DNA of 46,137 nt from a virus (IMGVR_UViG_644736364_000003); one strand, 5' to 3'. Shown: positions 18,999 to 20,902, numbered from the stretch's first letter. The notes: generated by a model not told the origin, from the sequence alone. A program made the numbers and translations.

Positions 18999-19214
18999 AT
19001 GTACCAGATGGAAAAAATCACAACAGGTGTGTCATACACCACGTCAGCGGTGGGAACGGGCTACTGGTTCCTGCAGTTGCTGGACAGGGTTTCCCCGTCT
19101 CAGTGGGCGGCAATAGGCGTGCTGGGGAGTCTGCTGTTTGGGCTGCTGACATATCTGACTAACCTGTATTTCAAAATCAGAGAGGACCGGCGTAAGGCGG
19201 CGCGGGGAGAGTAA
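18999..19214 (+). CDS. S: Class II holin / pinholin (phage 21 S21-like), dual-start motif
   Basis: 71 aa; [45 protein letters not shown]...[13 protein letters not shown] closely matches S21 as recalled; Met1/Met4 dual start. Confidence 0.85.
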
Positions 19215-19218
19215 AGTG

Positions 19219-19569
19219 ATGAATAAAAAATATGAACTGGTTGTTAAGGGGATAAATAATTACGGGGATAAGGTTACTGTTACTGTGAAGCCGGAAGGTG
19301 ACGGGCAAGCGTCGCTGTTGTTGCCAGATGTGGCGATTAGTCTTGACCGTACTGAAGGTGCCACGCTGGAGTTTTACGAAGCTGAGGCGAAAAAGCAGGC
19401 GAAGCAGTTTTTCATGGATGTTGCTGCCGGGTTATGTGAAGGGGATGGTCCGTTGCCGGAAAAGCGCCCCGTAATTTTAGAGGCGCAGGATGTGTTGATA
19501 ACCTACAAAGGAAAGCTACCGGGAAGAATTACTGGTTCTCTGAAGACTCCACCGGAATCACAACCTTAA
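19219..19569 (+). CDS. Hypothetical protein inserted between holin and endolysin (possibly YdfR/DUF1327-like)
   Basis: 116 aa with GGAG RBS; unrelated to holin or lysozyme; analogous position to ydfR in Qin as recalled. Confidence 0.5.
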   Translation: MNKKYELVVKGINNYGDKVTVTVKPEGDGQASLLLPDVAISLDRTEGATLEFYEAEAKKQAKQFFMDVAAGLCEGDGPLPEKRPVILEAQDVLITYKGKLPGRITGSLKTPPESQP

Positions 19570-19632
19570 TTCACTGACCGGAACAGATAAACCTGTCCGT
19601 GGGCAGAAACCGATAAATCCTGATAAATATCC

Positions 19633-20166
19633 ATGAACGCAAAAATCAGATACGGCCTGTCGGCTGCCGTTCTGGCGCTGATTGCCGCAGGTGCGCCTGC
19701 GCCTGACATTCTCGACCAGTTTCTGGATGAAAAGGAAGGTAACCACACCACGGCATACCGTGATGGTGCGGGTATCTGGACTATCTGCCGCGGTGCCATC
19801 CTGGTGGATGGCAAACCTGTCGTTCCGGGCATGAAGTTGTCGAAGGAAAAATGCGACCAGGTTAACGCCATTGAGCGTGATAAAGCGCTGGCGTGGGTGG
19901 AGAAAAACATCAGAGTGCCGCTGACCGAACCCCAGAAAGCGGGGATCGCGTCATTCTGTCCGTACAACATTGGTCCCGGTAAGTGTTTCCCGTCGACGTT
20001 TTATAAACGAATTAATGCAGGTGATCGCAGGGGAGCGTGTGAGGCGATTCGCTGGTGGATTAAGGACGGTGGCAGAGACTGCCGTATCCGCTCAAATAAC
20101 TGTTATGGTCAGGTATCCCGTCGTGACCAGGAGAGCGCGCTGGCGTGCTGGGGAATCGACAGATAA
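19633..20166 (+). CDS. R: SAR endolysin (T4-lysozyme fold, R21-like)
   Basis: N-terminal Gly/Ala-rich signal-anchor-release segment (GLSAAVLALIAAGAPAP) followed by catalytic E-D-T block (EGNHTTAYRDGAGIWTICRG). Confidence 0.85.
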   Translation: MNAKIRYGLSAAVLALIAAGAPAPDILDQFLDEKEGNHTTAYRDGAGIWTICRGAILVDGKPVVPGMKLSKEKCDQVNAIERDKALAWVEKNIRVPLTEPQKAGIASFCPYNIGPGKCFPSTFYKRINAGDRRGACEAIRWWIKDGGRDCRIRSNNCYGQVSRRDQESALACWGIDR

Positions 20167-20325
20167 GCAGAATATTTTGCTGAAAAATAAGGCATGGCCA
20201 CGCGGGCGGATAACATGAAATCCTGCGAACTGGCGAAACGTAAGTGAATAAAAGTAAAAACCCCGTTTGTTGGCACCAAGCGGGGTTTTGTGTTTCCTGA
20301 CTCCGGAAAAGTCAAAGGAGAAAGT

Positions 20326-20463
20326 GTGTTTGATTTTAGCAAACTGATTCGGGAGATTCGAGTGATGGCTGAAAAATTATCCACCTGGAAGTTCATTCTT
20401 ATCTGGCTGGTGTTTGTGATTATGGCCTCCGGTTATTTCATCGGTCAGATACGCTGGTGGTGA
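20326..20463 (+). CDS. Small hydrophobic ORF (about 45 aa) between endolysin and Rz; not in the ORF track
   Basis: AAGGAG RBS 5 nt before GTG; MFDFSKLIREIRVMAEKLSTWKFILIWLVFVIMASGYFIGQIRWW with one predicted TM helix; stop abuts Rz start. Confidence 0.35.
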   Translation: MFDFSKLIREIRVMAEKLSTWKFILIWLVFVIMASGYFIGQIRWW

Positions 20464-20464
20464 A

Positions 20465-20902
20465 ATGAACCGCGTACTGTGCGTGGTCATCATTGCCCTG
20501 CTGGTGGCCTGTGGTGCGCTTAGTCTGGGGCTGAATCATTACCGTGATAACGCCATGACCTACAAAGAGCAGCGCGATAAAGCCACATCCATCATCGCTG
20601 ATATGCAGAAGCGTCAACGTGATGTAGCAGAACTCGACGCCAGATACACAAAGGAGCTTGCTGATGCTAACGCGACTATCGAAAGTCTCCGTGCTGATGT
20701 TTCTGCTGGTCGTAAGCGCCTGCAAGTCGCCGCCACCTGTGCAAAGTCAACGACCGGAGCCAGCAGCATGGGCGATGGAGAAAGCCCAAGACTTACAGCA
20801 GATGCTGAACTCAATTATTACCGTCTCCGAAGTGGAATCGACAAGATAACCGCGCAGGTTAACTACCTGCAGGAATACATCAGGACGCAATGCCTGAAAT
20901 AA
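20465..20902 (+). CDS. Rz: Rz i-spanin
   Basis: 145 aa; N-terminal TM then NHYRDNAMTYKEQRDK...RQRDVAELDARYTKELADA closely parallels lambda Rz. Confidence 0.85.
   Translation: MNRVLCVVIIALLVACGALSLGLNHYRDNAMTYKEQRDKATSIIADMQKRQRDVAELDARYTKELADANATIESLRADVSAGRKRLQVAATCAKSTTGASSMGDGESPRLTADAELNYYRLRSGIDKITAQVNYLQEYIRTQCLK
20664..20849 (+). CDS. Rz1: Rz1 o-spanin lipoprotein, embedded in +1 frame within Rz
   Basis: AAGGAG RBS 7 nt upstream; lipobox LVVSAC; Pro-rich mature region KSPPPVQSQRPEPAAW. Confidence 0.75.
   Translation: MLTRLSKVSVLMFLLVVSACKSPPPVQSQRPEPAAWAMEKAQDLQQMLNSIITVSEVESTR

Follow-up and report, generated by a model that had tools for sequence, protein, structure and literature searches.

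Why should two additional genes stand within an otherwise familiar phage lysis cassette, and does either of them take part in lysis? The question is raised by positions 18,999 to 20,902 of a 46,137-nucleotide viral DNA (IMGVR_UViG_644736364_000003), the whole of which is referred to here as the window. The window is an Escherichia coli lambdoid prophage, and its segment from 18900 to 21000 is 100% identical to strains MS7163, 582, and others. An earlier reading of the sequence alone, referred to below as the original prediction, had listed a holin, a 116-aa open reading frame (ORF), a signal-anchor-release (SAR)-type lysozyme, a hairpin, a 45-aa ORF, Rz, and Rz1, in this order, all of which are present in the window. 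The same reading took the two extra genes to be an oddity of this cassette, which they are not: both are common, already catalogued elements, their arrangement has been annotated before, and phage H-19B as well as many Shiga toxin (Stx) phages carry both. Taken as a whole, the region is, on balance, probably explained as a standard phage-21-type lysis cassette (pinholin-type holin, SAR-type lysozyme, and Rz/Rz1) to which two independent accessory elements have been added, one encoding a YdfR-family protein and the other a small membrane peptide. The peptide gene, its mobility, and its possible control by an antisense RNA are considered first.

The hairpin-peptide cassette at the R-Rz junction

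The 45-aa ORF starts with GTG at 20326, 5 nt downstream of the Shine-Dalgarno (SD) sequence AAGGAG (20315-20320), which had been correctly picked out as its ribosome-binding site, and it stops 1 nt before the Rz start codon (ATG, 20465). In the RefSeq annotation of MS7163 the product is a 'hypothetical protein' (WP_000459345.1), and the gene is uncalled in other identical genomes. The sole profile matched, phrog_6632, is a 45-position PHROG profile of 'unknown function'; the peptide resembles no PHROG or Pfam family with a lysis annotation and has no match in PADLOC or NCBIfam, and a full-text search with the peptide sequence or the RefSeq accession found no publication. The peptide has an amphipathic, net-positive N-terminal region of 23 residues, a single transmembrane (TM) segment at residues ~24-42 (KD19 2.13), and a C-terminal RWW, and it is probably a small inner-membrane protein with a cytoplasmic N-terminus. 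Its relatives follow the pattern SK(L/I)I.E.R.M.(E/D).L..W(K/R)F, then one TM helix and often a C-terminal RWW.

The single-TM peptide that had been predicted is, thus, conserved, and homologues are present in related prophages, where the original prediction had allowed that none might be found. By tblastn, the peptide was found in 53 phage records, H-19B and many Stx1a, Stx2a, and Stx2c phages among them; identity was 60-67% in phages of Salmonella and 50% in those of Pseudomonas. Scans of genomes, viruses, and metagenomes extended the host range to Citrobacter, Edwardsiella, Yersinia, Sodalis, Brenneria, Pantoea, Providencia, Trabulsiella, and an Azoarcus metagenome-assembled genome. Among complete E. 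coli genomes, 898 of 5426 (~17%, about one in six) carry the cassette, and a single genome can have as many as six copies. When 1.84 billion representatives were searched with a profile, 41 clusters at 50% identity were returned, all of them stand-alone proteins of 32-86 aa, from which it follows that the peptide is never a domain of a larger protein.

The peptide gene is found in 36 distinct nucleotide versions, many of which encode an identical peptide. In the TM half of the gene, close pairs gave non-synonymous and synonymous divergences (pN/pS) of 0.06/0.72 and 0.09/0.73, a ratio of ~0.1, and over this half synonymous divergence was 0.72-0.88, near saturation, vs 0.06-0.11 for non-synonymous divergence. 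Because synonymous divergence is high and non-synonymous divergence low, the protein is under purifying selection and the gene is real. The opposite view, that the 45-aa ORF is a chance frame in a noncoding spacer in which the hairpin or an RNA alone is functional, could draw on the shortness of the ORF, its GTG start, its omission from the annotation of many genomes, and the nucleotide-level conservation of its 5′ half. This view appears effectively refuted by the substitution pattern, and the frame, length, TM segment, and motif persist across Escherichia, Pseudomonas, Azoarcus, and metagenomic lineages; it retains hardly any credibility. A second product of 32 aa may arise from an internal ATG (Met14) preceded at 9 nt by GGGAG. 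Met14 is kept in 15/15 lineages, an SD-like GGAG, GAGG, or AGGA is kept upstream of it though residue 9 changes, and some database entries (P0022 and P0023) begin at this codon.

The hairpin and the 45-aa ORF are one self-contained mobile cassette, which is moron-like and not tied to lysis. The original prediction was right that a hairpin is present, but it placed the hairpin at about 20262-20295, where the terminator scan gives 20257-20289, and it treated as a separate feature what is in fact part of the same mobile unit. This unit consists of an A-rich run, the GC-rich hairpin, a T-rich run, ~25 nt that include the SD sequence, a GTG or TTG start codon, and the ORF, and its upstream elements precede the gene throughout, except in lineages L113/L114 and L291 and in the remnant in L100. 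The hairpin of the window has 13 pairs, 6 of them G-C, and the tail GTGTTTCC; it belongs to a region in which the terminator scan found 11 terminator-like sites vs 2.7±1.4 expected in shuffles. Compensatory changes across 17 lineages occur at 7 of its 10 consensus pairs.

At least eight distinct contexts of the cassette were found, in genomes resembling those of myo-, sipho-, and podoviruses from gamma- and beta-proteobacteria, and the sequence 5′ of the hairpin is unrelated between contexts. The cassette follows endolysin genes of four PHROG families, usually with Rz next (the window, Salmonella phage SPN3UB, Citrobacter braakii, Edwardsiella, and Citrobacter sp.); it lies between baseplate V-like and W genes (Rac-SA53, SEN34, Yersinia, Pantoea, and Dryocola), after a tail fibre gene (Sodalis), after the gene for a very large virion-associated protein (Brenneria), between genes for podovirus internal virion proteins (Azoarcus), and among siphovirus tail genes (Pseudomonas YMC11/02/R656 and L288); and it is found downstream of an early region that is rich in operators and has ParE and HicAB modules on its flanks (L285-L287). 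Its GC content is 0.41-0.47 vs 0.55 for the lysozyme gene (R) and 0.52 for Rz. As is typical of morons, the cassette is present or absent between conserved neighbors in related phages, and the same unit recurs in unrelated genomic contexts. It departs from that type in that no plus-strand promoter-like site was found upstream and in that the terminator lies upstream of the ORF, not downstream. The suggestion that the peptide gene is a moron riding on late transcription, therefore, fits well, whereas the accompanying suggestion of a role in lysis timing specific to the peptide is unlikely, because the same cassette occurs in baseplate, tail, internal-virion, and early contexts of unrelated phages.

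Several copies have features of their own. In L285-L287, at ~1095-1260 and upstream of the distant copy, there are repeated operator-like GTAAAC-N5-GTTTAC palindromes and two terminator-like hairpins; this stretch adjoins a helix-turn-helix/Peptidase_M78 repressor-like gene and the ParE and HicAB modules, and it is an early or accessory region, not a late operon. In Dryocola (L100, 2680-3108), what is left of the peptide gene is its 3′ (TM) half alone, with no hairpin and no N-terminal motif; another small hydrophobic ORF lies ahead of it, and the remnant, which has the same baseplate genes on either side, is apparently a copy that has decayed or recombined. In the IMG/VR contigs L113/L114 (~2486-2602), a 38-aa relative, VNRISKAKPLRWVRTMTDKLSPPRFWARWAIGFVVAAG, lies directly after the stop codon of the upstream gene and has no hairpin.

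The R-Rz junction of these prophages is, in this light, a variable insertion site rather than a fixed part of the lysis program. In some prophages (L278-L282) the junction is empty and R overlaps Rz (ATGA), and many prophages with an identical holin-YdfR-R-Rz set have no cassette; in the window, a 298-nt insert made up of a left flank and the cassette separates R from Rz. The flank, of ~90 nt, is common to the window, Sakai Sp15, and SPN3UB despite their different inserts and is missing from the junction with overlapping R and Rz genes (L278). It may serve as a recombination joint or belong to another RNA. In Sp15 of E. coli O157 Sakai (L271, 14749-15464, minus strand), the gap holds the antirepressor gene ant (ECs_2967) and then the gene for an unrelated 48-aa single-TM peptide (ECs_5741, MGWLMISDKLITLVKSLCVLVGISFLVMLVAIFFSTAWRVLTLSGLVG), which ends 9 nt before Rz. 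This is the second small membrane peptide at the junction; a third is encoded by an unannotated 36-aa hydrophobic ORF in SPN3UB (L007, ~2236-2346), MSKRDVSALCFLMAAAVAISGNDGWGWLIFAGIIIL, which overlaps the end of the endolysin gene and lies upstream of the cassette. In Citrobacter braakii (L091, 13-1329), three tRNA genes and two matches to the small RNA (sRNA) STnc100 are located upstream of the prophage lysis genes.

Nucleotide constraint in the 5′ codons and a candidate antisense RNA

The first half of the peptide gene bears nucleotide constraint beyond that on the protein. Codons 2-22 show far less synonymous divergence than codons 23-45 (0.08 vs 0.72 between lineages L189 and L096, whose upstream spacers are quite different despite the conserved 5′ codons), and among same-amino-acid pairs from 15 lineages the fraction with different codons was 0.30 in the 5′ half vs 0.68 in the 3′ half (Mann-Whitney p=4e-6). 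The conserved codons form an island flanked by divergent spacer on one side and by the divergent 3′ half on the other. Two codon-invariant stretches stand out within it, namely codons 3-5 (GAT TTT AGC in 15 lineages) and codons 11-12 (TTG CGA, or ATT CGA in the E. coli type).

On the minus strand, the first of these stretches, with the base that adjoins it, reads as a putative extended -10 promoter element, in which T-15, G-14, T-12, A-11, A-8, and T-7 are fixed and positions -13, -10, and -9 vary. The second stretch stands exactly 17 bp upstream of this element, where a possible weak -35 element would be. The residues encoded over this element do vary: residues 3-4 are DF, DI, DL, NF, HL, NS, HF, or YF (including Azoarcus, L284, and L285). 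Where Ser5 is replaced by Ile, in Azoarcus, the codon is ATC, which keeps the C of codon 5, and GC-rich Pseudomonas retains GAT TTT. Because the -10 bases stay fixed while the encoded residues change, the pattern of variation is that of a promoter rather than that of a protein. The hairpin and the -10 element also tend to occur together: ~15 lineages have both, two have neither, and one is discordant (15/1/0/2, Fisher p=0.02), and in the hairpin-less lineages L113/L114 and L291 the -10 element is spoiled too (TAATAC and TCAGAT). The minus-strand T-tail of the hairpin, TTTTTACTTTTATT, is T-rich in all correctly defined lineages, and in Azoarcus it is kept where the plus-strand tail is lost. The position of the -10 element, which would place the start ~7 nt downstream, at the peptide start codon, together with this T-tail points to a cis-antisense RNA of ~75-80 nt, which would be complementary to the start codon, the SD sequence, and the spacer and would end at the hairpin. 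An Rfam scan of 18000-22500 at E<=1 yielded two sub-threshold chance matches only, the best being to the rimP leader (minus strand, 20247-20322, 24.7 bits, E=0.76), and a scan of 11 related loci at the gathering threshold yielded nothing at the cassette.

A mechanism can be proposed in which the cassette, inserted at the variable R-Rz site, encodes a small inner-membrane peptide whose expression would be low and controlled, as suggested by the non-AUG start codon, the location of the SD sequence in a small hairpin, and the promoter-like signal on the opposite strand. The SD hairpin recurs at the same position with differing inner stems (CCTTG/CAAGG, CCTG/CAGG, CGTTA/TAACG, and GACT/AGTC). A constitutive minus-strand promoter within codons 3-12 would produce a ~75-nt antisense RNA that covers the translation start and stops at the bidirectional hairpin. 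The peptide message would arise only by read-through from the host operon, since the cassette has no conserved promoter of its own; in the window, the source would be Q-antiterminated late transcription. Such a layout would be that of a type I toxin-antitoxin or SymR/symE-like pair, and the peptide may be toxic or have some other activity at the membrane. Stated in full, the cassette may represent a previously undescribed phage-borne family, type I toxin-antitoxin-like, that combines a membrane peptide with a ~75-nt cis-antisense RNA, has its promoter in codons 3-12 and uses the upstream hairpin as terminator, and is transferred, across gamma- and beta-proteobacteria, among late operons, and some early ones, of myo-, sipho-, and podoviruses. 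This proposal is a tentative one, plausible but falling somewhat short of probable.

A number of observations weigh against it. The -35 match is poor, at 3/6 consensus positions, and the L289/L290 lineage keeps the hairpin without a clear -10 element. The plus-strand hairpin is ~2 kcal/mol more stable in 15/17 lineages (Wilcoxon p=0.007), with G·U pairs in that orientation, and a role on the plus strand, as a terminator or 5′ stabilizer, is, therefore, at least as well supported as one on the minus strand; the hairpin clearly also matters as a plus-strand RNA structure, and its covariation does not distinguish the strands. A preference for AU-rich sequence after the start codon, together with the internal SD sequence and Met14, could explain part of the synonymous constraint, and GGGAG, 9 nt before Met14, does explain some of the constraint around codons 9-10. 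The folding energy of the SD hairpin is no better than that of dinucleotide shuffles (mean z=-0.5) and the pairing probability of the SD sequence ranges from 0.15 to 0.96, so that sequestration of the SD sequence is only suggestive. An intrinsic terminator between essential baseplate genes, where no antitermination is known, is awkward for expression by read-through. The cassette has no match in PADLOC, NCBIfam, or Rfam. Finally, ~3/8 of the independent contexts are directly after an endolysin gene, which is more than random insertion predicts and may point to a muralytic or lysis connection.

In a rival account, the cassette is a simple membrane-peptide moron, expressed late or in the lysogen and serving, for example, superinfection exclusion or modification of the host like HK97 gp15. 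There would be no antisense RNA, the hairpin would act only as a plus-strand terminator or mRNA stabilizer, and the conservation of codons 3-12 would reflect translation signals, namely a start region that is AU-rich and unstructured and the internal SD sequence for Met14. Small membrane-protein morons in tail operons are an established class, of which HK97 gp15 is an example, and this account would draw on the greater stability of the plus-strand hairpin with its G·U pairs, on a plus-strand T-tail that is good in most lineages, on the GGGAG ahead of the invariant Met14 as the cause of the constraint on codons 9-10, and on the weakness of the -35 element. It is nevertheless judged somewhat unlikely. 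AU-richness leaves unexplained the invariant third-position C of codon 5 (AGC in 14/14 lineages, and ATC where Ser is replaced by Ile); R6 of L284 is encoded by AGG, which preserves the 'TG' of the extended -10 element; strongly conserved -10 positions stay fixed while the encoded residues vary; and the hairpin and the -10 element were lost together in L113 and L291. Furthermore, no conserved plus-strand promoter accompanies the cassette, leaving no visible source of the lysogen expression that exclusion would need.

A lysis accessory has also to be considered, in which the 45-aa peptide would adjust how the SAR endolysin is released, the holin triggered, or the spanins function, acting like an antiholin or like the releasin of phage Mu, which is said to be a small membrane protein that regulates a SAR endolysin. 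The peptide is a single-TM inner-membrane peptide by prediction, its gene ends immediately ahead of Rz, and the cassette directly follows endolysin genes of four families (in the window, L091, L092, and L099); the Azoarcus copy precedes the gene for an internal virion protein with a muralytic domain, other small TM peptides occupy the same junction in Sp15 and SPN3UB, and the possible dual start at Met1 and Met14 recalls holin/antiholin pairs. All the same, peptides of 60-90% identity are encoded between baseplate genes (SEN34, Rac-SA53, Yersinia, and Pantoea), and other copies of the cassette lie in tail regions (Pseudomonas and L288), after a tail fibre gene (Sodalis), and by an early operator among toxin-antitoxin genes (L285-L287), all of these sites being distant from lysis genes. 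With the prophages that have the same holin-YdfR-R-Rz set and no cassette, and the lack of kinship to lysis-annotated families noted above, these placements make a lysis accessory quite improbable, and the antisense-controlled membrane peptide is retained as the working proposal for the cassette.

The YdfR-family gene and the core lysis genes

For the 116-aa ORF between the holin and lysozyme genes, the original prediction had offered DUF1327/YdfR as a guess to be checked by profile search, and the guess proved correct: PF07041 matches over residues 1-112 with 140.8 bits vs a cut-off of 25, and the identical 116-aa protein is named 'YdfR family protein' in RefSeq. The gene starts 4 nt past the holin stop codon (an alternative GTG lies at 19216) and is, thus, probably translationally coupled to the holin gene. 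The order holin-YdfR-lysozyme is also that of the K-12 Qin prophage (essQ-ydfR-rrrQ-rzpQ/rzoQ). Moreover, PF04971, DUF1327 after a 4-nt gap, and then PF00959 follow one another in 12/12 prophage places inspected, which represent two diverged YdfR homologues (59% and 64% identical) with six genomic places each; across these places, which are on different prophage backbones, the Q genes, the upstream genes, and the downstream genes differ. In E. coli prophages, in short, the S21-type holin has YdfR as a fixed partner. Its family comprises hundreds of 90% clusters, and almost all of the source-named ones are from Escherichia or Shigella. YdfR is present with or without the peptide cassette. Sakai Sp15, a related prophage, is without both, and its holin and lysozyme genes are adjacent, as the original prediction had described for phage 21; a cassette of this type can, therefore, work in the absence of YdfR.

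No segment of the protein is hydrophobic (maximum KD19 0.59). An AlphaFold2 model shows a beta-beta-alpha-beta-alpha domain at residues 1-73 and a disordered C-terminus; its mean predicted local distance difference test score is 61, with moderate confidence at residues 1-73 only, and the fold was not used to assign function. Foldseek comparison of this fold with the PDB and BFVD gave nothing below E=0.07, a sequence search of the PDB revealed no relative, and there was no match in PADLOC or NCBIfam. Residues 1-72 of K-12 YdfR bind RNase E's N-terminal (catalytic) domain in two-hybrid and co-purification assays, and RNA is recovered together with the protein (PMC13232886). The N-terminal domain is common to the K-12 and window proteins, while the C-terminal tail is different. 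The best reading is that the YdfR of the window is a late-expressed cytoplasmic accessory protein that acts on RNase E or RNA, binding of RNase E being attributed to it by analogy with K-12 YdfR, for which alone it is known. Against this reading stand the low overall identity of the two proteins (39%) and the finding that overexpression of K-12 YdfR altered few transcripts (PMC13232886).

YdfR is probably not a lysis-timing factor at the level of the membrane, and its strict linkage to the holin leaves some likelihood to a lysis-related role. A cytoplasmic regulator of the pinholin, such as an antiholin partner like T4 RIII, whose placement would reflect lysis timing and not RNase E, would account for the position of YdfR directly 3′ of PF04971 holins in all 12 places, with a gap that suggests translational coupling, and for its near confinement to Escherichia and Shigella prophages with this holin type; the protein is soluble and acidic and has a conserved disordered C-terminal tail. 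Yet the Sp15 cassette, of the phage-21 type, is functional without YdfR, the protein has no likeness in sequence or fold to known lysis regulators, and the sole available experiments tie K-12 YdfR to RNase E and RNA. A role directed at the holin, suggested by the strict linkage alone, is the weaker alternative and is considered rather unlikely. In a common YdfR variant (P0140 and P0144, 176-183 aa; e.g., L278, 2501-3031), an extra C-terminal extension of ~60 residues (…EKDDIESPIEKLE…KKLSVLIPSEDEKKRRDEQFAAFYDYCIEVTRRNFVKIFEEGKSLQ) is found, and a ~320-nt gap precedes the lysozyme gene.

The remaining lysis genes are of the expected kinds (Table 1), and the RefSeq annotation of MS7163 gives exactly the same coordinates for them. 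The N-terminus of the holin, MYQME, contains the M1/M4 dual-start motif that is a feature of S21-family class II holins, and its RefSeq name is 'class II holin family protein'. The lysozyme N-terminus, RYGLSAAVLALIAAGAPAP, has a weakly hydrophobic, Gly/Ala-rich, SAR-like segment at residues 7-24 (KD19 1.74), from which release from the membrane as a SAR endolysin is predicted. A catalytic E-x8-D-x5-T motif is readable in the sequence, and homologues of the protein include the phage 21 lysozyme of known structure, 3hde (E=9e-16), and also RrrD 4zpu. Rz1 is, as had been foreseen, embedded in the +1 frame of Rz, at an offset of 193 nt (1 mod 3), and has the lipobox VSAC.

Table 1. Features of the lysis region and of the hairpin-peptide cassette in the window
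Feature	Position	Strand	Basis or remark
Class II (phage 21 S-type) holin, 71 aa	18999-19214	+	PF04971 'P21 holin S' E=9e-33; phrog_9876/phrog_20 'holin'
YdfR-family (DUF1327) soluble protein, 116 aa	19219-19569	+	PF07041 E=1.7e-41
Lysozyme, glycoside hydrolase family 24 (GH24), SAR endolysin type, 177 aa	19633-20166	+	PF00959 E=3e-24
Left flank of the R-Rz insertion site	20167-20255		Aligns window, Sakai Sp15, and Salmonella phage SPN3UB
Putative cis-antisense RNA, ~75-80 nt	20247-20327	-	-10 position and minus-strand T-tail
GC-rich hairpin, tails T-rich on either strand (bidirectional intrinsic terminator); cassette 5′ end	20257-20289		Terminator scan
Small hairpin, 3′ arm including SD AAGGAG (UUUCCU-GACU / AGUC-AA-AGGAGA)	20293-20321	+	Per-lineage folds
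45-aa peptide gene, GTG start	20326-20463	+	phrog_6632 E=1.2e-29; RefSeq WP_000459345.1
Putative extended -10 (TGnTAnnAT), TGCTAAAAT	20333-20341	-	Inside peptide codons 3-6
Possible weak -35, TCGAAT (TCGCAA in most other lineages)	20356-20361	-	17 bp from -10
Possible second product, 32 aa, from internal ATG (Met14)	20365-20463	+	GGGAG 9 nt upstream
Rz i-spanin, 145 aa	20465-20902	+	PF03245 E=7.5e-37; phrog_13
Rz1 o-spanin lipoprotein, in +1 frame of Rz	20658-20849, likely ATG 20664	+	PF06085 E=2.4e-20

Upstream of the holin gene lie genes for a SASA-family carbohydrate esterase (16336-18297), which is labelled 9-O-acetyl-N-acetylneuraminic acid deacetylase in one Stx phage, a DUF1378 protein (18434-18616), and a DUF826 protein (18654-18923); this block is the usual cargo downstream of Q in Stx-like prophages. 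A gene for a KilA-N domain protein (21104-21625) follows Rz and is the same neighbor in SPN3UB and several E. coli prophages.

Significance and relation to known systems

With these assignments, YdfR, the constant partner of the S21-type holin, has one experimental lead in its binding of RNase E, and the peptide cassette is recognized as an element that moves between phage operons and reaches Stx phages. Should the antisense RNA prove true, the cassette would be a widespread and so far uncharacterized toxin-antitoxin-like or exclusion module of temperate phages and a clear example of a promoter encoded in the codon choices of an overlapping gene. The cassette may be filed under kinds that are already known, as a moron and as a small membrane peptide under type I-like antisense control.

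The lysis genes themselves agree with the phage 21 cassette and its K-12 Qin copies in having a PF04971 holin, a GH24 SAR-like lysozyme, and an Rz gene with embedded Rz1, and the Qin prophage has YdfR in exactly the same place between holin and lysozyme. The differences are that R overlaps Rz in Qin and in the 'empty' prophages, where the window has its insert, and that the 116-aa YdfR of the window has another C-terminal tail and is only distantly similar to that of Qin. Several phage proteins target RNase E, including T7 gp0.7, phiKZ Dip, and T4 Srd. YdfR resembles them in that the K-12 protein binds the catalytic half of RNase E and co-purifies RNA (PMC13232886), and the window protein keeps the N-terminal domain responsible. 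It differs in having no sequence or fold similarity to them, and the link to RNase E is binding by K-12 YdfR.

Among prophage loci, the IsrK-orf45-anrP region of Salmonella Gifsy-1 offers a similar arrangement, in which a prophage terminator hairpin is followed, by read-through, by an ORF of ~45 codons with a sequestered ribosome-binding site; antirepressor genes are often near the peptide cassette as well. Identity of the two was rejected, as Gifsy-1 orf45 is conserved in nucleotides and not in amino acids, has AUG starts, and overlaps anrP, and the IsrK and sRNA-Xcc1 Rfam models had no match in the window at 18000-22500 (E<=1) or at the cassette in 11 loci. Elsewhere, matches to sRNA-Xcc1 above the gathering score (78-80 bits) lie directly upstream of antirepressor genes in L008 (3560-3643, minus strand) and L094 (4098-4185, minus strand); in Rac-SA53 and a Sodalis prophage, these genes and the peptide cassette converge, a layout that recalls IsrK/ant. 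The AgvB/AsxR anti-sRNAs of enterohemorrhagic E. coli prophages were likewise rejected, being sited downstream of PR' and upstream of the holin and not in the R-Rz gap.

In the SymR/symE pair, and in the sar RNA of P22 that opposes ant, the RNA begins within the ORF, at its 5′ end, and extends over the ribosome-binding site. The peptide cassette would share with them a small ORF and a predicted RNA of ~75 nt that has its putative promoter in the first codons, is fully complementary to the SD sequence and start codon, and ends at a terminator; SymE, unlike the window peptide, is not a membrane peptide. The resemblance to type I toxin-antitoxin systems lies in the peptide, which is hydrophobic, shorter than 60 aa (45 aa), and equipped with one TM helix. 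It is, however, unrelated to the type I toxins Hok, Ldr, TisB, Ibs, ShoB, and Zor, and its N-terminal helix is long, conserved, and cytoplasmic, in which it differs from most toxins of this type; the cassette further differs from type I systems in lacking a conserved promoter for the peptide message and matches in PADLOC or Rfam. With phage morons such as HK97 gp15 and lambda bor/lom, the cassette shares its optional presence between conserved neighbors, its lower GC content, its small membrane protein product, and its recurrence at tail, baseplate, and lysis junctions. A classical moron, in contrast, has a promoter upstream and a terminator downstream, whereas the terminator of the cassette is upstream and its only promoter-like signal points the other way.

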